Below are positions 1 to 63,136 of a stretch of DNA of 64,000 nucleotides, in pieces; position 1 is the stretch's first letter, and each line of letters begins with the position of its first letter. Origin of the DNA: Pelagomonas calceolata (Eukaryota); contig CAKKNE010000002.1 of the NCBI GenBank assembly GCA_918797485.1, forward strand, positions 3,658,001 through 3,722,000. The letters are read 5' to 3'. The notes under the pieces are model-generated. The model saw nothing but the letters and a program-made list of their open reading frames with translations, made no database searches and was not told the origin of the DNA. The position numbers and the translations under genes were made by a program.

Positions 1-1209
1 TAGTCCGTCATGATACCATCCAAGTCAATAAGACCATCAACTGAATCATGAACAACCTCTCAGAAACAAATAAAGCAGAACGAGCTAGGGGAGATGGATG
101 CGATGCGGGATCTACTTCACGCCCCTCGTTTGCATCAAGATCTACCCGCACCCAACATGGGGTCGACGACATATGTCATGCGAGTAATAAACAAATAAAC
201 AAACTTGAACTAAGGGAAGACCTAAAACAAAGCTTATTAAAAGGAACACGGGCAAGCTCGCTCCTAATTAGTGGCACCGTCACGGTGACTGGCAGGGTAT
301 AGTTCAATAAGTTAGTAAGCCTTTCCAGCGAAATTCCTCCGCATTAGAAAGAAGGACTCACGGTAGTATAGATGCCTCAGGCTCGGGGCCGGCCGGCCGG
401 ACAGGACTCGGATAGAGGGTCCTTTTCGGAGCACTGGCACTGCCAGTGGCAGTTCTAAGTGTGGCAGTCTTCAAAAGTTCGCCAGTGCCCGGTGGGCCCG
501 GGCCCAGGCCACTGGCAGTCACTGAGTCACGGTGTGTAAGCTCAGGCTCACGCCGACTCGGAGCCTTCCCACAGCACAGCACTCAGGCTTCAAGTCACGG
601 TTGGGCGGCCCCGGCCCGGGCGGCGGCTCCGAGTCATGCCAGCCTGGGTGGTCACTGGCCCGGGCACTCAGGCTCAGGCTGACATTGGGGGCGCGGCGGT
701 TGGGGCTAAGCGTGAGATATTTGACCCCTTCGTCGTGCTCTCCGTCCTCGATTTGTTCTTTCTTCGTAGGTAATGTACCGTAGGTACCGTATTCACTAGA
801 CCTACTTTATCCAGGAATTCAAGGTATACGCACATATCATAGCAGGACTGCGGTATAGGTGATTTTTCTTTTCTAGGCATTCACTGTAAAACACTGGCAC
901 TCCCGGGCCGAGTCTACGTCAATAGGCGGAACCTTGTGGGCCCATAACCTAGCAAGAGTATGTCGCAGCATTATTTAAGGTAGCAGGGTCCTAGCTCACC
1001 AGCCAACTTGAAAGGCTGCCAGTGGCCCGGGGCCAGTGGCAACTTGAACCCGGCCCGGGCGGGCCTAACCGTGACTACGAGACTCGGAGTGTTTTATAGC
1101 AAATTGTGTTTACACCGTAGTGTCAATAAATACTCGATGTATAGACTCAAATTTAGAGAGTGGGAGATACATATCCAGGGTAGGAAGGGCTAGTAGGTTT
1201 CTCTCTCTA

Positions 1210-13115: not shown

Positions 13116-13339
13116 TGCTGAGACGCTATCGACACTCAAGTTCGCCATGCGCGCCAAGCGCGTGACCAATGTACCGCGCCTCAACGAGGACCTTGACCAG
13201 GCATCACTACTGCGCAAGTATGAGCGAGAGCTTAGACGCCTCAGTGCCAAGCTCGAAGAGCGAAATCGCAATGTAGTCGATCAACGGTGTCTACTCGAGC
13301 TCGAAGAGCGCCGCCGTCGCGCCGAGAAGAACAAGCATG
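13116..13339 (+). pseudogene. Inverted 224-bp duplicate of an internal part of the neighbouring kinesin gene
   Basis: Reverse complement of 14495-14718 with about 6 substitutions by eye; encodes MRAKRVTNVPRLNEDLDQASLLRKYERELRR. Confidence 0.95.
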
Positions 13340-13607: not shown

Positions 13608-15896
13608 TCAAAGATTCCTTTCTGAGGTGGCAAGGCGCCTCCCAAGCTCGCCTTGGCCGGCCTGTTTCAGCGCTTCGACAGACGCACGGATGAGGCGCCG
13701 CAGTGCGCCAAGATCTTTGAGTGCAAAGGCACGTGCAGCACCGGGCGCTACGTTTTGACGGTCGAGATTTGAGGCGACGCTGTCGACCAGGACCGCAATT
13801 TTCTTTTCGAAGATGGTCTGGACAGCATGGCGCTCCTTGTCGCGAAGCTCAAGTAGGGTCAAGAGCTCGGCGACGCGTTTGTCTGCGCTTGTACCACCGG
13901 CCGCAGCACCACCGACCGCAGCGGCCGCGGCAGGAGCACAATCAAGGGGTCGCATTAGCTTTGCATTATCTGCGCGGCGCACAGTGACGTCATGTCGAGC
14001 TGCGTCTGCCTCGTGAAGTGCCGCCCGCGCTCCACCCTCGAGCTCAAGGCGCTGAATTTGGATGCACTGGGTGGTCTTCTCATCAAGCTTGTTTTCGAGC
14101 GCAGCCTGGTTCCGATCATACGCTTCAAGCTCATCCTGGAGTGCCATGATCTGCTCATCGCGCTCATTGAGCCGCTGAGTTAGCGCGATCATGATATCGC
14201 GCTGCTTGAGCAGTAACTGCTTGTAGCGCTCGACCTGAGCCTTCTCGTGCTCAATACGCTCACGCTCACGCTCGAGATCGGCCAGCCGCGCGTCGTACTC
14301 TGCCGCTGTGTGACGTGCAGGCGACACCTTAGCGTCGTCGATGCCGCCTACCCTGCCACCGACCATCCCGTTCCCCCCGACATCAGTCGAGATCATCTGC
14401 GACGTAAGTTTTAAAATACGCTCCTCGAGACGCGTCTTATCCTCCTTTTCGCGCATGAACTCACGCGAGCGTACTTCGAGCGCGCGAATCGCCGCACGCT
14501 TGTCCTCCTCGGCGCGACGGCGGCGCTCTTCGAGCTCGAGTAGACACCGTTGATCGACTACATTGCGATTTCGCTCTTCGAGCTCGGCGCGGAGGCGTCT
14601 AAGCTCTCGCTCATACTTGCGCAGTAGTGATGCCTGGTCAAGGTCCTCGTTGAGGCGCGGTACATTGGTCACGCGCTTGGCGCGCATGGCGAACTTGAGT
14701 GTCGATAGCGTCTCAGCAATCGACTCAGCTGCTGGCGAGATGGTCGCCAACATGGTTGTGCGACAATTGCCGCCAAGTGAGTCCTCCAGGAGCCGTGTGA
14801 GCTTAGAGTCGCGGTAGGGGACGTGCTTGCGTGTAGTACCGCTTGTCTGCCGCGTAGCAAGGGCGGCTATTACATTTCCGAGGGCTGACAATGACGCATT
14901 GATCTTCTTCGATTCTTCGAGTCGCTGGCCAGTAGCGCCTGAGACACCGACACGCTCGGAACCAGCGAGGTCGACAAGATTAAGCTTCCCCACGCGAAAT
15001 GTTTGCTTGACTCGGTTTTCCAGGCGCGCGAGTGCTTCGGCCCGCTTGAGGCCGGCCGATCGCATTTCACGGGCAAAATCGTCTGGCGCCAACTCACGTC
15101 CGTCCTCACCCACATAGACAGTCTCCGAATGCTCGACGATAACGACAAAAACTGCGTGTGACCGCGACGAGAAGTCATTCATCCTCGTGGCGCCAGTTGC
15201 GCGAGATCGCGAAGCGCGGTCCATTAGCGCGTAGACCTCCGAGGGCTGGCGAACAACCCACTCAGAGAGACCGTCGACGTACACGCCGCGCTTGGGATCC
15301 TCACGGATTGCGAGCGCTTCAAGCGGCGATGCTACCGCACTGGTTCCCTCAGGTGCTATGCCGTTGCGTGGGGGCGCCAAAAGATCCGAAACGATCTCCT
15401 GGTAGATCTGGATGCAAGACGCACGCGCGAGGAAGCGCACGTTTTTCTGTGCGTGTCCTGCAACGTGACGGAAGATCTGTTCGACCGACCGTGGGATGAT
15501 GCCACGTGCAACCGGATCACGGGCCTCAGAGCCGTCCATTGTGTAAGTTTTTCCAGTGCCTGTCTGACCATACGCAAACATCGTGGCATTATAGCCCTGA
15601 AGGCAGCTCTCTACAACCGGCTGTGCGGTTGTTTCGTAGACTTCCGCTTGTGTGCTGCCAGCATCGTACGCATCGTCAAACGCGAACGTGTGCACCGCCA
15701 CGCTGCGCTGGCGATTGATTGTCGGCACATCGTTGTCCACGTCGCTAATTGTCACCGTCTGCAGCCGCTTATCCACGCGCGCTACACTCCCCGACGACTC
15801 GTGCGCGAGTAGCGGCCGTACACGGACGACTACCTTGACCGCATCGTCATGCCCCCTGGGGGAGCGCGCCGCCGACGATCGGTCTAACTCATCCAT
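13608..15896 (-). CDS. N-terminal motor kinesin with coiled-coil tail
   Basis: 762 aa: VKVVVRVRP, FAYGQTGTGKTYTM (P-loop), NDFSSRSHAVF, LVDLAGSER, HVPYRDSKLTRLL, ETLSTLKFA, then coiled coils. Confidence 0.97.
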   Translation of the reverse strand: MDELDRSSAARSPRGHDDAVKVVVRVRPLLAHESSGSVARVDKRLQTVTISDVDNDVPTINRQRSVAVHTFAFDDAYDAGSTQAEVYETTAQPVVESCLQGYNATMFAYGQTGTGKTYTMDGSEARDPVARGIIPRSVEQIFRHVAGHAQKNVRFLARASCIQIYQEIVSDLLAPPRNGIAPEGTSAVASPLEALAIREDPKRGVYVDGLSEWVVRQPSEVYALMDRASRSRATGATRMNDFSSRSHAVFVVIVEHSETVYVGEDGRELAPDDFAREMRSAGLKRAEALARLENRVKQTFRVGKLNLVDLAGSERVGVSGATGQRLEESKKINASLSALGNVIAALATRQTSGTTRKHVPYRDSKLTRLLEDSLGGNCRTTMLATISPAAESIAETLSTLKFAMRAKRVTNVPRLNEDLDQASLLRKYERELRRLRAELEERNRNVVDQRCLLELEERRRRAEEDKRAAIRALEVRSREFMREKEDKTRLEERILKLTSQMISTDVGGNGMVGGRVGGIDDAKVSPARHTAAEYDARLADLERERERIEHEKAQVERYKQLLLKQRDIMIALTQRLNERDEQIMALQDELEAYDRNQAALENKLDEKTTQCIQIQRLELEGGARAALHEADAARHDVTVRRADNAKLMRPLDCAPAAAAAVGGAAAGGTSADKRVAELLTLLELRDKERHAVQTIFEKKIAVLVDSVASNLDRQNVAPGAARAFALKDLGALRRLIRASVEALKQAGQGELGRRLATSERNL

Positions 15897-28308: not shown

Positions 28309-29145
28309 ATAGCCCGAACGTCGCAACTTACTACGAAAGGGCCTTAGGGGGTGCCTCACATTCTGGCGGAGTGTGGGGCCCTGAAAATGCGAGGGGCCGG
28401 AAGGGCCCCCACGCGAACGTCGCGCCAGTCTAGGTTGGCACTTACCATATCCCGTCGGCGGGATATGTTATACGGCACTTACCCGAGGGGTTATTAACCC
28501 CAATCGTGGCCCGGGGTCAGTAACCCGGGTAATTACCCGTTAGTACGGGTTATTAACCCCGCCGGGATCTTATAGTACTAGACTTTCTTATAGAGGGGGA
28601 GGGGGAGGGGGCCTCACGGGCCACTGGCGCGGGCCTGGGCCGCGCCGGGCCACATGACTTGGTACTTGCCTTGGCGCACCTGTACGTACCCAAAAGCTCA
28701 ACGGGCTGCTTGCGCCCATCCGCTCGCCCGGAGGGGTCTTTCGCTAATCTCACTAAACGGGTTTAGTCGAAAACCTGTCGGGTTATTGAGCGGGTTATTG
28801 TCCCGGATCCCCTCCGAGGGGTAATTATAGGTTAATAACGGGTAATTAACAGGTAAGTGCCAACCTAGGCGCCAGTGGCGTTTCGCGTCGTGTTTGCGCA
28901 TCCTCAGGCTACCGACGCCACCGTGACGGGTACCAAGGGGGACTTCGAGGGGGAAATCACCAGCATAGAAGCGAGTTTTGATTTTCACCCCTGAAAACCC
29001 GCGAGTTGAGCTAAATACCCTCACGTTAGGTCATTTTGGGCACCTCACCCCATCTCGAGGGGGGCCCCTCCGTGGCAAGCTAGTGTCGCCGTGTGCTTAG
29101 GATGCCCCTGGGACCAAACGGGCCAAGTTGCGACGTTCGGGCTAT
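28309..29145. mobile_element. Non-autonomous TIR element hosting a nested hAT-like MITE
   Basis: Perfect 21-bp inverted repeat ATAGCCCGAACGTCGCAACTT (28309-28329) / AAGTTGCGACGTTCGGGCTAT (29125-29145). TSD ambiguous (TA, AT or TTAA/TCAA). Confidence 0.85.
28430..28868. mobile_element. hAT-like MITE
   Basis: 17-bp TIR CTAGGTTGGCACTTACC / GGTAAGTGCCAACCTAG, perfect 8-bp TSD GCGCCAGT (28422-28429, 28869-28876), subterminal TAACCCG/TTACCCG/GGGTTATT repeats. Confidence 0.92.
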
Positions 29146-38371: not shown

Positions 38372-38773
38372 GTCTCTACTGGGCCCAGTCGCATGCGTCG
38401 GCCAATGACGCCAAACGCTAAATCGGACTCAACTATTACCTACTACTAAAAGCCTGAGCCTGAGGCCGGGTGACCTACCCATTGTATTTAGTACCCCTTG
38501 CCAGATGGGTAACTTCGCAACTGCGTCTCGCCGCGAAAGTGACCCCTTCCCCCCAACCCGGTCTCGGGGCGTACAAAGGGACTCTTCAAGGGCCGAAGTT
38601 TGGGACCCCGCAGCCAAAATCGCCCCTTAGGGGTGACCGTCACAACCCAGCCCGAAAATGGGAAAATAAACCTCTTGAATAGTACGTAAAATATACTATG
38701 ATTAAAAAAAAAACCTCTTGAATTAAACGAGTGGTGGAGACTAGGGCGGCCGTCGCTGCCATATCATGATGCA

Positions 38774-38990
38774 CACTGGCAAATGTAATTTTAATGCCGG
38801 GCCCTGGCCGCTCAAGACGGCTCACGCCGTGCACTGCCAGTCACGGTGCCAGTGCGGCCACTGGCAGTGGCAGCCTGAGGCTGAGTGGCACCGTCACGGT
38901 GACGGTGACTCACTCAGTGTCCAGGCTGTGGCAGGCTCAGGCTCAGGCTCAGCCTGAGGCTGGCAATAAATATGTGCAGTTCCACCGTGA
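38774..38990. repeat. Dense array of overlapping XY-C-rc(XY)-G-XY footprint words
   Basis: CACTGGCA, GTCACGGT, TGCCAGTG, AGCCTGAG, tandem CTCAGGCT and ACCGTGAC in near-continuous succession. Confidence 0.85.
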
Positions 38991-39203
38991 CGACCGGTAC
39001 TTGTAGGTATAGTTATTTATAGACCCGTAACTTTAACGTATGAGTTACGGCGTTACGGCGTTACAAGAAAAAATAAGATCCAGGAAGTCCAGGAAGTAGA
39101 TAAGAACCAGCCCTTTATTTTAAGTCACTGGGTGAATACTTAGAAGCCTGGTCTTCTACACTGTATCGGTAGAATCCCAGAGAGGCTTTTAGCTAACTAT
39201 TGG

Positions 39204-40649: not shown

Positions 40650-40890
40650 ATGCGATGCATAGGGAAATAGAATGTGTAGCTCCGGACTTTCCCGGCAGCG
40701 TAGTGTAGTCGTCTAACGAAATAGTTTCTCCCATGTTTGATGGGGTTTGTGACGGGGAATTGCGTCCGTCAATAAAAGTGACTCAGGATGATAATAGTTA
40801 GGAGTGAGAGGCGACTTCCCCCTACTAAGGGGATATCGGAGTACCCTAGGATGGGAAGTAGCCTAGGCGAGTAATACAAGTACGGGTTGT
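40650..40890 (-). repeat. Dispersed repeat family B, inverted copy of 57086-57341
   Basis: About 240-bp near-identical reverse complement. Confidence 0.9.
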
Positions 40891-53947: not shown

Positions 53948-54904
53948 CACGTTTGCTTAGCCCCGTAATTATATTGGGAGCTGGACCATACCGCCTCAAG
54001 CTAGCTCTGCCCTGGGGCCGATAGATAAAATATAGGATTCAGCTTACCCTAGTCTCCCTAGTGGCTAGTGAAAGTAGTAGCAGACTAATAGTTGGGAATT
54101 TCTTCTTTGCTCAGTTGTCGCCCACCGGGTCAACCAATCCCGGGGACAGGTAGTAGATCCCCCCGGGCCCCATCAAACAGGGAGGGAGGGCGGGCTAAAT
54201 AAATCTGAGGACCGACACAAACCACAGCCAATTTGGCTTTGTGGTTGGGCGGAGAATCCGAGGGGAGCCTAAGGCTAGTACAGTAACCAGGGAACTGCTA
54301 GCTGGCTTCTAGCCTCGCGTTAGAATTTGGTACACTCACGGAGGTGTCCCAGCCCAAAGGGCAGCCCAGGAATAACCTGGGTTGTGTTTGGTGCCATAAT
54401 AGACCCTATGGTGCTGGAAGCCAGCGTTGAGAAAATTTCTCAGGCACATGGTGCCTCTTTGTGTAAACGATACTAGTGCATCTGTCTCTTTCTCTAGTAG
54501 CCCGGGCCGCGGCCTGCAACTCTGCGAATAACGCAAGACCAAAGGTACGCACCTTTTGGAGTACAGCGGCTGAGACAGTCCGCCAAAGAACTAGCCTATG
54601 TCCGGGCCGGCTAGGGCAAGCATTAGTTATCACTTCAAGTTTAGGCCCGGGATCGTTAGCGAGCTCGCCCGGCCAAGTTGAAGTCGGCGATAGTATCATG
54701 ATATGCGGGAGACTCGGATAGCACACCGTGGCACGAGTTGAGATAAGTTGGGCCCGGCCCGGGGCCGGCCCGGGACTCAGAATCTAGGACTCGGACTCGG
54801 ACTCCTCAGGCTAATTGGACCCAGCGGTCCGGCGTAGGCCTATTTATCGTGTTCCGCCAGTGGATCTGTAAGGGGCCTATTTCCGGCCTGATCGAGGCAC
54901 TAGC

Positions 54905-56764
54905 ATGATAGCGCACATGGCTTCAAAAGAAGCTTCATATCTTCTCATATCACGACGGTAGCTAGCGCACAAACAAGAATGAATGTAGCCGGCTCATCAA
55001 CAGAGGGATCATCGTTGGTTGACCAGTTACAAAGGTATCTAATGAGAGGATGAACTTGTATGAGGAGGATTGTCTTAGATACCGTTCCAGGACCCCTGGG
55101 AGCAGCGTAAACCCAAAAGGTTTGAAACATAACTTGTGCATCTTACTCATCCTTCAGGCGAAGACATATCCGAGAACGGCAACAATATATGCAAAAGTCA
55201 AATCCGTGACTGTCTGTCGGATAGATGTGTGGCTGTTGTTGTTAGCAATTTCGAAAGATACCCTGTGCATGAAAATGTACCTGCAGGGTAAGGTCGCGCG
55301 GTGGTTGCATTTGACTGCGTGTCTTCTAGATGTATGCGCGAAATAACCTCGAGGCTCGTGCGGGACCTAGACCTTAAGATTGCTTCTGAATTTATCTTTG
55401 ATGAGAGTTATTGGAAGCAGCGGTGCTATCAGCTTCTACCTAAAAATTATCAAATTAATGAGCACGGGCTAACTTGGAAACAGTTGTTTTTTGAAACACA
55501 TCTTCAACAAGTACGCTAATTTTTGACACGCCATAATTACTTACCTTGTCAAAGTGCCTGGAAGAGCTTGGTTCTCATGAATTGGAGGTGCACCTGGCCA
55601 ACAAAGTAATTCAATTATGACGCAATTAGGGAAGACACGGACTAGATCTTCTGTCAGTAGCCAGTTACTCCCAAAATTACACATTTACCCTCAAGGTCTG
55701 AGCCAAGCGATTTACTTTCCAGTAATTTGTGTCTGCTGTATAGACTCAACAGCTGCTGGGACATCCAAATATAGATTTGCTTTGCCAAGCGGTGTGCAAC
55801 ATGCGCTGTGAAGTCGCTTAAAATGATCCACATAGCTACCCAACCTCACAAAAATTGAAATGAAGTACGGTGCGAAGAAATTGGGCATGAAATATGATCG
55901 AATGCTTTTCGGAATGAAGGTTGCTCGTCAGCTCCGGACGTGTTGTTATGATATTTTCAAGCCAGGTATCTGATGCATATTGTCTTGCCAAAAGTATTTC
56001 TCAATCCGAGAGTCTCACGACGCTCATCCTCCAGTCAAACTTAATTGATGATGACTTACTCAGAATGTTGATGACTGGTCTCATTAAGGTAGCTATCGAT
56101 TCTTGACTTCAACGATATCACTATCTCAGAGCTCACAAATAACCAGTCTGGATCTTGCTCACAACAAGATAACAAACCATGGAGTACGTTTACTGTCAAA
56201 GCTACTAGACAAATCGAGCGTATTGACAAGCCTGAACCTTGCAGACAATCAGATCAACACAGAGGTGCATGTATGAGTCAGTTGACACCAACTTTTAATA
56301 TTTTCCACAGGGTGGTCGCTACCTTGGGCGGGCTCTAAGAGCAAATGAATCTCTCGTAGACATGAACCTACGACTTAATAGATTGATGGATGACGGAGGG
56401 CGTATGCTCCTTGAAGGTCTTTGCGATACCTGTAAAATAATTCACCTGAACCTTTCTGGAAACTTGCTTGCAAGGCAAACTACAATAATGCTGATGCACA
56501 TTTTAGCTGAAGGCAATTTACTTCTGGAATCTTTGGACCTATCGTGTAATGAACTCACCAACAGAGACCTGCACGACATCGCGAAAGCGATGGAAGAGAA
56601 TGAGGTAATTCATCAATACTATCAGCCCCTGATTTGCTTTTTGGTTCTAGGCCTCGATAAGCATGGATTTGCGATTGAACAGAGTAACTGGCGAATCTGC
56701 TGTATATGATACCATACAGCAGATCCTTCGGCGAAATGAATTGAAAGCACAATCTGGTGGCTGA
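54905..56764 (+). CDS. TCTE1: Dynein regulatory complex subunit 5 (TCTE1/DRC5), LRR protein, many short introns
   Basis: IFDESYWKQRC..INEHGLTWKQLFFETHLQ, YGAKKLGMKYDRMLFGMK, NLIDDDLLRMLMTGL, LDLAHNKITNHGVRLL, MNLRLNRLMDDGGRMLLEGL, ISMDLRLN. 5' exons uncertain. Confidence 0.88.
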
Positions 56765-57085
56765 GCTCAAGTCCAGCGCTTACATATCTGGGTGCCGTGG
56801 TGAGTGACGTGAATACATGTATTAGTGCTTGAACAAACTAGCTACGGGAGTCTGGGCCGGCCCCGCAGCGAAGCCGGGGCGGATTTGGAAATAAGTAAAT
56901 ACATAAATCACGGCCTAGCTCTAAGCAAAGCAATAAACAAGTAAATAAAGGAAGACAAAAAAATGAACAAGCTCCTAAGACTCTAGTAGGAGCCTGCTCC
57001 GAGTCCGACTCGCCGGGAGTGCAATGGATTCAATGGAAATACACGTCTAGTAGGATCACAAGGTTCAACTGAGACGTATCCAAGC

Positions 57086-57341
57086 ACAACCCGTACTTGT
57101 ATTACCCGCCTAGGCTACTTCCCATCCTAGGGTACTCCGATATCCCCTTAGTAGGGGGGAGTCGCCTCTCACTCCTAACTAGTTTCATCCTGGGTCACTT
57201 TTATTGACGGACGCAATTCCCCGTCACAAACCCCATCAAACATTGGGAGAAACTATTTCGTTAGACGACTACACTACGCTGCCGGGGAAGTCCGGAGCTA
57301 CACACTCTATTTCCCCGGGCCTCAGGCTATCATGCATCGCA
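57086..57341 (+). repeat. Dispersed repeat family B, followed by decayed ORF pieces (57369-57831); possible 5' end of a retroelement
   Basis: Matches the reverse complement of 40650-40890 apart from substitutions and stacked short insertions at 57314-57333. Confidence 0.85.
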
Positions 57342-58279
57342 GGTAAGTGATTAGCTGCACAAGTTCTAGTGAAGCAGCAAATGAACGCGCTTAGGGAACA
57401 ACTTGCACAAGTGAGGCAGAAACCTCCTACTCAAGGCGCAGCCCTCGAGGCATTAGCAGCAAGCTCTAAAACAAATGAACTTGAAAAGCTTGCGCGGCGG
57501 GCACTGGCAGTAGGCAACTCACTTAACAAATCACATGGTGTATATAAACGCGATATGCCACCCTGGGCTGGCAGAATTACCTCAAGTACAAGCCAGTCAA
57601 CGTGCGTACTGGGGCACAGCTGGACGCGGTTCTGCTCATATTGAGGGACGTACGTCAAGAGATGCATTAGATCACCTTTACTGGATAAATGACCTCGACG
57701 ACAATGAAGAACGACGAGGAATCTTCAAAATAAATAATACAGCATTACTAAAAACGAATGTCATCTTGCAAATTACATGCTTCCCCATCAATCTGACTTT
57801 AGCAAGAAAACCACTGTTATATACGTGCTAAAACAGTACTTTAGGCAAAGGAGTAGACACAAGCGAGCCAGGGTATGCTCAAGCCGCGCGGGTTCGTGCC
57901 CTGGGGCCTTCCAGGGCCAACCCGCGGGCGCCGCGGCGCCGCCGCGTTAGCCTCGAAAACGAAGGGGACTGCTCGGATGGGGGGCGGGTCGGCGTGGGGC
58001 CCACAGATTCCACGTTTCCCCTTCCTATGCAGCCTTCCGGACGGCCTTGGGCATCGAAACGGACCCCTGGCATGCGTTTAATACCAGCATTATCTAGCAT
58101 GGTATTTTTCCTCCCACTTGCAGTCGAACTTGCTATGACCTCGTCGCACGCATCACCCTGCGTTGACCGTGTTTTCCGTCCGTGTGGAGCGTTCAGAGCA
58201 CTCCGGCTTGAAGGAATTATAGTCACTCCGGAGCGAGCGCACTTGCTACAGCTGCACACAAGGTAGTTCTCCTTTTTGC

Positions 58280-61866: not shown

Positions 61867-62359
61867 TGGCCACACCGCTATAATGTCCGTCAGCTCAGCC
61901 TGGAGTCAATTGTTCTTCATTGTTCCTAGGAGCTCGTGCGAAGCCCGTCGACTCGGAGCTAGTAGCCGCTGCACGTCTAGGACCCAGGGCTCGATGTAAT
62001 AGCGCCGACGTCCCCGTCACGTATTGAGCTCATGCCTTGTATTAAAAGAAGAGTAGCTTATTCCTGGCAAGGCCCGTTCATTTTATCCCTCAGGCGCTAG
62101 GCTCTCAAAAATCATTGGCCCTCGGCGTAGGGAGGAGGCTATAAACTTCGCGTAGGGAGGAGGCCTTTAGAGGCTTGGTGTATGTCCTTTTCCACTAGGA
62201 TATTCCTTCATGCCTTGGTACTTGCCTCGACGCGCCTGCACGTATCAAAGGCCCGACGGGCAGCTTGTGCCCATCCGCTTTTGGCTCACATCAAAAAGAA
62301 CCCAACACCGCAATTCGGGACAGGGTCTAGGTTCCCATCACCCCGTAGGCCCCACCCCA

Positions 62360-62745
62360 CCCCAAGTCGGGTAATTCTTTCTTGTAAGATTTTGACGCAT
62401 ACTCCATGAGTCCTAATTAAGATAAATTACCCTGTGAATCTTAATACTGCGTTGAGACTTCGAATTTTATAGGGGGTTAAGCGCACCCGTCGACGTTGAT
62501 TTTGCGCAATGTCGCGACAGCCACGCGCCGAATGGCGGGAAATTTTTGCTGAGGCGCAGGTTCCGTATGCTAAAATAATGGGCTGTGCGCAATTTGGTAC
62601 CATGCGGGCGACCGCGACCACTGCGATAAAACCCGAACCCGAACCCAAAATCGCCCTGAGACTTATAAATTGAACCATAATTACGAAAAAATTATTTCCT
62701 AACGTTCCATATCTATATAGGGCTCTAAGGGATTTTCCTCCTTTT
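62360..62745. repeat. Dispersed repeat family A, copy 3 (diverged)
   Basis: Shares GAGACTTCGAA..TATAGGGGG, GCTGAGGCGCAGGTTCCGTATGCTAAAATAATGGG and ATTATTTCCT..CGTTCCATATCTATATAGGGCT. Confidence 0.85.
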
Positions 62746-63136
62746 GGCTAGGCCGAATCACCCCGATGAAAAAGTTGCGCGTAAGAATAAAAAATTAATT
62801 ACCTTGCTTAAGAGCTAGGCCGCCTTCGGGGGCTGCAAGACCGAACGCCCGTGACGTACTTTTTTTATGTATGCACGAAAAACAAGGGTAAAGTTTTTTT
62901 AGACGCACCCTGCGGGCGCATCGAAAAAACCGTGACCTTACCCAAAAGGGCCCGGGATGCGTGATTGTCCCGCAGCCCCTCTTTTCCCCGACGTCGAACT
63001 AAGATTTCGGGGAGAACACGGGGAGACTCGAGTTAGAGAAGCTCTCGGGTGACCAGAGGGGTGATTCACTAAGTGATTCACTGGGGCCGCCCGGGAAGGG
63101 GCCAAATCGGCGTTCTTATTAGCAATACGGGCTACC

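Follow-up and report, generated by a model that had tools for sequence, protein, structure and literature searches.

Stacked three- and six-base insertions in a Pelagomonas calceolata LTR resemble hairpin-type excision footprints of a transposon with C...G ends

Elements of the hAT superfamily duplicate 8 bp of their target, and Tc1/mariner elements leave excision footprints of the form TA-(2-3 end bases)-TA. The Tc1/mariner excision pathway is described in the available text of PMC5499845, where hairpins on the flanking DNA are also given as established for hAT, Transib, RAG and Muta1. The footprints of Ac/Ds are palindromes centred on the complement of a flank base, and 28 kinds of them are reported in 128 clones (PMC5873905, available text). 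The CMCT clade comprises EnSpm/CACTA, Mirage, Chapaev, Transib, Plavaka, ESTA, as well as Lanisha; most of its members have CA..TG termini and target duplications of 2-5 bp, PlavakaB duplicating 2 or 3 bp, and the words “hairpin” and “footprint” are absent from the portion of the paper available (PMC12730594). In the literature searched, mainly open-access, we found neither an account of a scar of the form XY-C-rc(XY)-G-XY (a dinucleotide XY, its reverse complement in the middle and XY again) nor a description of the excision chemistry of elements with 2-bp duplications, and the available parts of two pelagophyte genome papers do not mention such a scar.

We analysed a 64,000-nucleotide stretch of the Pelagomonas calceolata genome (the window), in which an LTR of an LTR retrotransposon with TG...CA ends, probably the remnant of a 3' LTR, hosts stacked scars of this kind (57020..57341, plus strand). 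A partial, unscarred paralogous copy on the minus strand (40651..40890, LTR reference positions 58-297) keeps the ancestral end, which reads ATTTCCCTATGCATCGCA at positions 40668-40651. Relative to it the focal LTR has 15 extra bases at its 3' end, composed of three changes: CC became CC-C-GG-G-CC (57314..57321, added bases 57316-57321), CT, a target overlapping the CC target by one base, became CT-C-AG-G-CT (57321..57328, added bases 57323-57328), and the palindromic AT became AT-C-AT (57329..57333, added bases 57331-57333). Our automatic parser, which strips a rule-fitting unit only if the alignment to a real unscarred copy improves, splits the insert into these three events with zero residue, just as an earlier note on this DNA had described three insertions at adjacent dinucleotides. 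The empty and filled strings quoted in that note are both found in the sequence; its interval ends correctly at 57341, while the filled string starts at 57309, two bases to the left of the start it gave. It had called the comparison a proof: the insertion events stand, and the word is too strong given that the mobile element was not found.

Since the window's two copies are paralogous LTRs and not alleles, more copies were needed to establish polarity. A pattern scan for the LTR gave 76 loci and 81 LTR matches (the window's two included), or 55 flank-distinct entries; genome-wide statements in this paper refer to the window plus these 76 LTR-centred loci, a sample biased to low-GC regions. The 15 bases are absent from 48 of the 50 LTR entries covering the site, the two carriers (L056 and L067) being the focal locus itself, so the short form is ancestral. 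The identical 15 bases in L013, L040, L056 and L067 likewise show that the insert is not an assembly error. Contigs of four runs hold it unchanged, starting only 7-30 bases to its left where the bridging rule asks for 31 bases. No intermediate allele of the focal triple appeared among the contigs and loci compared.

The host repeat has all the features expected of an LTR: TG...CA ends, a length of about 297 bp in unscarred copies, a purine tract upstream in many copies, the conserved sequence GGTTATGGGCCC downstream in 5' copies, and 5-bp target duplications at three solo LTR loci (L007; L027/L029/L039; L044/L075). Judging by the GGTTATGGGCCC motif, the element may be of the Ty1/copia type. 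Read depth over the LTR is 110-260, versus 5-13 in unique flanks; the LTR had no match in the viral collection, and Rfam gave none at 56700-58200. In L017, an allele of the 40651..40890 copy, one 6-bp and one 4-bp insertion are present that are absent from the window. The internal ORF of L032, which runs off the locus, has only weak matches to rve (E=0.049) and DDE_3 (E=0.01), and an atlas query with it returned nothing. Two ORFs lie in the element behind the LTR there (L032 1-9773, minus strand), one of 1388 aa and one that is at least 1881 aa long, contains a C5 DNA methyltransferase domain (E=2.7e-15) and gives a weak integrase-like match; related pieces occur in L010 and L052, and the LTR retrotransposon behind the scarred LTR thus seems to carry a DNA methyltransferase.

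Other events have also touched this LTR. At its 5' end (57020-57036) lies a 9-bp insertion, CAATGG-ATT-CAATGG; L049 has a 9-bp duplication with a 3-base spacer and L050 an 8-bp duplication-plus-spacer insertion, and all three are possibly footprints of MULE- or hAT-like elements. Four flank combinations surround the LTR among contigs (window 54693-57341, L049, L056 and L007), arising either from LTR-LTR recombination or from mis-joins through the repeat. L049 combines the window's left flank and an unscarred LTR end with a different right flank; it may itself be such a mis-join and was not used as an empty focal allele.

The six-base scars obey a single rule far beyond the focal site. The window contains 159 8-mers of the form XY-C-rc(XY)-G-XY, versus 18.6-43.6 expected from Markov models of order 1-4 and 13-84 for each of the 15 other centre-base pairs; all 16 dinucleotides occur as XY, and the middle is rc(XY) throughout. 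Among aligned copies the rule fits 46 of 58 unique six-base indels, a length class that compares with 20 five-base and 9 seven-base indels in all. It also fits 17 of the 20 six-base indels in long allelic alignments, showing that the scars segregate among present strains. The earlier observation compared two paralogues only, which left room for chance or for an assembly or sequencing error; such an origin is now scarcely credible, given the same 15 bases in four other assembled contigs, a motif over-represented 4-8 times in the window, the ancestral end kept in nearly all entries and the two rule-fitting fractions just given.

The distribution of the scars is uneven. Pfam-supported ORFs, 27.7 kb of the window, contain ten of its 8-mers, and the remaining 36.3 kb contain 149, with dense intergenic stretches at 376..1088 (26 scar 8-mers), 38763..38991 (11, with tandem stacks) and 54501..54812 (11). 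In 456 kb of non-redundant sequence, counting XY with A or T, density is 4.8/kb in low-GC non-ORF DNA, 2.5/kb in high-GC non-ORF DNA and 0.26/kb in low-GC ORFs, against 0.91, 0.57 and 0.19 per kb for a swapped-centre control, so that insertions of a multiple of three are not enriched in coding DNA. Low-GC DNA has 992 scars in 360 kb. The excess of variants with one mismatch is smaller than the number of exact motifs, which indicates that most scars are young. The 50 LTR entries (9,762 bp) hold 38 scars versus 175 substitutions, and scar and substitution counts are uncorrelated across 23 full-length LTRs (rho 0.25, P=0.24).

Among the window's genes are those for NOT1, TRA1, a kinesin, subunits of TRAPP, and proteins of the Kelch, DHHC and Myb types; for the Kelch protein the nearest named relatives come from the pelagophytes Chrysophaeum taylorii (60%) and Pelagophyceae CCMP2097 (59%), and the stretch is present in marine metagenomes of 11 studies. 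Most 2-kb windows have 43-56% GC, with blocks of 60-71%. Genes at the neighbouring loci include dyneins, kinesin, tubulin, RNA polymerase subunits, Dcc1 and MCM, the same gene set that the genome paper gives for the putative centromeres of Pelagomonas calceolata, which are low in GC and in which no transposon accumulation is reported (10.1101/2021.10.25.465678, available text). Part of the kinesin gene is repeated, just downstream of the gene, as an inverted copy of 224 bp (97%; 13116-13339 and 14495-14718).

We consider it probable that the 15 bases are three footprints of a cut-and-paste transposon with C...G ends that was excised by way of hairpin-capped flanks. Three marks of a hairpin footprint are present: a derived insertion with a target duplication, bases that are the reverse complement of the flank, and a microhomology junction. 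No allele or copy in 456 kb of non-redundant sequence had the element in place at such a site. The middle tracks rc(XY) for every XY, so a fold-back is needed. The C and G are constant, and the flanks do not provide them: when the empty sites were reconstructed (518 sites, 1036 with both strands counted), C-XY-G was read at only 114. An element that begins with C would most simply account for a constant C on both strands.

In the mechanism that we propose, the element would insert at any dinucleotide XY to give XY[C...G]XY with a 2-bp target duplication. Excision would begin with a nick that the transposase makes in the non-transferred strand, one base into the element; attack by the freed 3'-OH on the opposite strand at the border would then close each flank into a hairpin, with the element's terminal C as its one-base loop. 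Host enzymes opening the hairpins two bases past the loop would produce 5-nt 3' overhangs, XY-C-rc(XY) on the left and its mirror image on the right; annealing of the terminal two bases and filling of the gaps would yield XY-C-rc(XY)-G-XY, an addition of six. For a palindromic XY the overhangs could instead pair over their full length around one C:C mismatch, giving XY-C-XY or XY-G-XY, an addition of three. This shorter product would win at CG and GC, where four G:C pairs form, and compete with the longer one at AT and TA. A rare 3-bp target duplication would give the same scar with eight added bases. For a nick inside the element we found no measured case in the literature searched.

The three-base form bears directly on this scheme. 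Of 32 three-base indels, 15 are tandem and uninformative, 9 are not XY-N-XY and 8 are informative: five are palindromic with a C/G centre, two palindromic with an A/T centre and one non-palindromic. The 6-bp events divide into 43 at non-palindromic dinucleotides, two at AT, one at TA and none at CG or GC, so that the choice between the two forms depends on whether XY is palindromic (Fisher P=1.2e-4). The earlier note had taken the 3-bp product at palindromic dinucleotides as a prediction of the hairpin model, and this largely held. Its expectation that the form would be restricted to AT, TA, CG and GC is borne out as a bias (7 of the 8 informative cases) and fails as a strict limit, three of the eight breaking the strict rule; an earlier indel listing also had one non-palindromic TC-C-TC.

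Motif counts agree. XY-C/G-XY at palindromic XY occurs 712 times (both strands) versus 449 expected, or 1.59-fold, while the three other classes are at 0.99-1.08 times expectation. The signal is clear at AT (95/47) and TA (83/53); at CG and GC every one of the four centres stands at 1.4-1.5 times expectation, which makes the 5-mer test uninformative there. The 6-bp motif in turn stands at 0.14 of expectation at CG, 0.27 at GC, 0.95 at AT and 0.78 at TA, versus 1.04-1.34 at non-palindromic XY. We would explain the order of depletion at CG and GC by self-complementary overhangs pairing around a C:C mismatch, which should be more stable when rich in G:C. An alternative is that CG and GC are avoided as targets. 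Decay of CpG does not account for the CG deficit (46 decay variants versus 70 expected); the GC decay variants show a small excess (84 versus 59).

A longer variant, XYZ-C-rc(XYZ)-G-XYZ, is found at 22 free-standing sites, versus 6-14 in the 15 other centre classes (Poisson P=1.7e-4, uncorrected), and an empty/filled pair of it exists at CAT (L009 versus L065/L066). Between the forms the duplication changes and C and G do not, and this fits C and G as the ends of an element and the duplication as its target-site duplication.

Set against the known systems, the scars quite likely work like a hairpin-type excision footprint, one of unusual inferred geometry, unusual uniformity and high density. 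They share with Ac/Ds the palindromic additions from opened flank hairpins and end joining at microhomology (PMC5873905, available text), and differ in their constant C/G centre, the 2-bp duplication with both copies whole and the one dominant product; an 8-bp duplication and a flank-complement centre, as in hAT elements, were not found. With Transib, the V(D)J coding joints of RAG1 and Muta1 they share a flank hairpin opened by host enzymes, yet Muta1 cuts at the border with mostly precise excision, target duplications are long, and a base of the element in the hairpin loop is not described for any of the three in the available text (PMC5499845). The nick that we place inside the element would separate our scheme from Ac/Ds (PMC5873905) and from border-cutting Muta1 (PMC5499845), as far as the available text of both papers goes. 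This counts against the scheme, as does the near uniformity of the scars beside the varied hairpin footprints known so far. As in Tc1/mariner footprints, a 2-bp duplication is kept with end bases of the element between the copies; Tc1/mariner uses TA only and has a fixed middle, whereas the scars use all 16 dinucleotides and have a middle, rc of the target, that varies with XY.

The CMCT clade is the best fit by ends and duplication length, and we do not claim membership in it. The duplication deduced from the scars (2 bp, rarely 3) lies within the clade's range of 2-5 bp, PlavakaB, which duplicates 2 or 3 bp, matches both the major scar class and the minor one, and the end bases C and G would agree with CA..TG, of which only the first terminal base is readable from scars. 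The clade is further marked by a DDE transposase that has C(2)C and H(3-4)H motifs; no transposase was matched in a Pfam scan of 202 ORFs, 16 from the window and 186 from the loci (185 of the latter from 222 listed).

We looked for the element itself among large insertions between collinear matches, inverted repeats, repeat families and places where repeat ends pile up, over 631 kb of sequence (456 kb non-redundant). None with C...G ends and a 2-bp duplication turned up, nor did any CA..TG family with 2-bp duplications in the non-redundant part; what the search yielded was MITEs of hAT-like and MULE-like type whose duplications are 8-9 bp, besides LTR ends and chance pairs. MITEs lie in the window at 28431-28869 and 62345-62757; a hAT-like MITE has CTAGGTTG ends and an 8-bp duplication, and a 420-bp MITE has a 9-bp duplication and an empty site in L012. 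Two candidates (L071 3886-6440 and L004 2506-2816) were rejected, as their inverted repeats extend beyond the apparent 2-bp duplication. Where contigs were compared with two stretches, none of the loose ends listed (24 of 124 and 24 of 223) could be ascribed to an element. Some 1000 scars per 360 kb with not one parent element is an extreme ratio, and it counts against the transposon reading.

A decayed DUF6729 gene lies in L034 (115-1038, compared with L006), and the other allele in this comparison has a 336-bp fold-back element at about the same site. Atlas neighbours of DUF6729 include CxC4/CxC5 clusters of KDZ transposases. The fragment was rejected as the maker of the scars, its insert (GGGC...GCCC) being flanked by a repeat of about 8 bp; no longer relatives of it were found, and the domain is unnamed in the literature searched. 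Separately, a contig of run X15 is 100 bases longer at window 29569/29570, where contigs of three other runs break; the insertion could be an element or a scar stack.

The missing parent invites the question of whether a mobile element was ever involved. Enzymes of the Spo11/topoisomerase VI type make a 2-nt staggered break, and a host enzyme of this kind, or a lone domesticated transposase, could start a series in which the ends are filled in, gain a fixed C, are sealed into a hairpin, reopened and joined. Such a series would pass through the same hairpin intermediate to the same 6-bp and 3-bp products; it would agree with the empty-handed search of 631 kb and with a flank composition around empty sites that is nearly flat, leaving hardly any target preference, and SPO11 is reported in Pelagomonas (10.1101/2021.10.25.465678, available text). 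We nevertheless hold it to be distinctly unlikely, because it requires an invariant non-templated C at both ends, and because the 3-bp-duplication form keeps C and G while the stagger changes, as would be the case for the target cut of a transposase. For recombination breaks in particular, the higher scar density in low-GC than in high-GC non-ORF DNA is the reverse of the prediction, if low GC means low recombination.

Errors of the polymerase account for the data less well still than a host break does, and as the source of the main class we think short-range template switching or slippage very improbable. Slippage cannot produce a reverse-complement middle with a fixed C and G, and the three focal events are at three different dinucleotides, none of them tandem; a template switch requires an empty site that already reads C-XY-G, which the small share of such sites largely refutes for this class. 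Slippage may extend some stacks, since in 4 of the 17 allelic events of 6 bp a scar unit already present is copied in tandem and motif pairs number 65 at exactly 6 nt versus 28-30 at 7-8 nt, and a template switch fits a minor 4-bp class, WX-rc(WXYZ)-YZ. This class was seen in LTR copies of L004, L017, L035 and L072 and makes up 5 of 14 four-base indels, one of them also tandem; its motif, at 1564 versus 1402-1853 for controls, has no clear excess. It fits either a hairpin footprint of an element with a 4-bp duplication or a short template switch.

A further class of scars occurs at TA, as arrays of TA-CC/GG-TA and TA-CCG/CGG-TA at 2.2 and 5.4 times expectation; there are 18 arrays in the non-redundant low-GC sequence, and those of the window are at 776-791, 1222-1264 and 1276-1291. 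In shape they seem to be footprints of the Tc1/mariner kind, such as an element ending in CCG...CGG would leave, and each event doubles its TA target, so that arrays can grow.

The focal stack is one instance of a wider tendency. Twenty of the 38 LTR scars have a neighbour within 4 nt, versus 4.1 expected under a uniform null, 7.3 with positions drawn from other copies and 6.1 under a growing-target null (6 bp added per event), in which 20 was reached in 0 of 10,000 runs. This count left out five of the 55 entries (L043+ and L060 as misaligned; L067, L055 and L076 as duplicates of other loci), as well as three-base parser calls that are not palindromic with a C/G centre (L019, one; L069, two; L071, one). 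The signal is carried mostly by about six heavily scarred LTR copies and persists without the focal locus (17 of 35 scars, P=0.0005); under the growing-target null, three events within 3 nt in one 297-bp LTR, as at the focal site, have P=0.002. The excess is confined to 0-4 nt, with none at 5-10 or 11-30 nt, which disfavours a broad chromatin-linker cause.

Over the whole sample the tendency is weaker. Motif pairs count 65 (6 nt), 25-46 (7-20 nt) and 17-21 (41-200 nt), the raw pairs at 7-20 nt being only about 1.5-2 times those at 60-200 nt; gaps of 12 nt or less between scars in the window (28 versus 7) are inflated by a null that includes unannotated genes. Among polymorphic scars, 6 of 17 are within 3 nt of a shared scar where about two are expected; three of the six are tandem copies that slippage could make, and the slippage-free test gives 3 of 13 (P=0.19). 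The strong local re-targeting proposed in the earlier note thus holds for clustering within 4 nt in LTR copies and loses its “strong” genome-wide: the LTR sample does show re-targeting, which is moderate when all the data are taken together.

Stacks likely grow event by event, a scar or its edge acting as a favoured target. The alleles L042, L071 and L050 have one stack in common, to which L071 adds AT-C-AT and L050 two 6-bp scars; these alleles show stepwise growth at least once. Scars of the TA class are intermixed with the 6-bp scars in this stack. A stack could also form in a single burst, if an excised element re-inserted at its own hairpin-capped or repaired donor site and left again; this concerns the stacking step only, and the scars would still be transposon footprints. 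Hairpins as targets stimulate RAG transposition (PMC1618415, available text), a preference that offers a precedent, by analogy, for scars as targets as much as for a burst. The excess restricted to 0-4 nt, the lack of an intermediate focal allele and several 9- and 12-bp differences that parse as two scars together suit a burst, while the later gain of scars in single lineages of the L042/L071/L050 stack and three non-tandem allelic scars in or on a scar common to both alleles speak against it; we regard a burst as a serious candidate that is nonetheless on the unlikely side.

Growth by successive events remains our preferred reading of the stacks, and the hairpin reading of the earlier note is supported, its predictions on clustering and on the three-base form having largely held. 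Footprints are usually known from a few laboratory excisions; here they would be the commonest class of 6-bp indels in the sampled DNA of a marine pelagophyte present in many ocean metagenomes. The shape of the scar predicts a cleavage geometry for an element with a 2-bp duplication, in which the hairpin loop is the element's first base, and how hairpin ends anneal would show naturally in the way dinucleotides divide between 6-bp and 3-bp forms. The scars could also serve to date and polarise intergenic DNA in the putative centromeres of low GC. More speculatively, and in our estimate rather unlikely, the transposase would be very low-copy or domesticated, RAG/CMCT-like, and write scars in a hit-and-run manner, putting in and taking out a minimal DNA end with a nick one base into it and re-attacking its own marks by preference. 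If so, each round would leave a near-deterministic mark of 3 or 6 bp with no standing population of elements, and the intergenic DNA of P. calceolata would grow by self-propagating mutations, at about one event per 4-5 substitutions.
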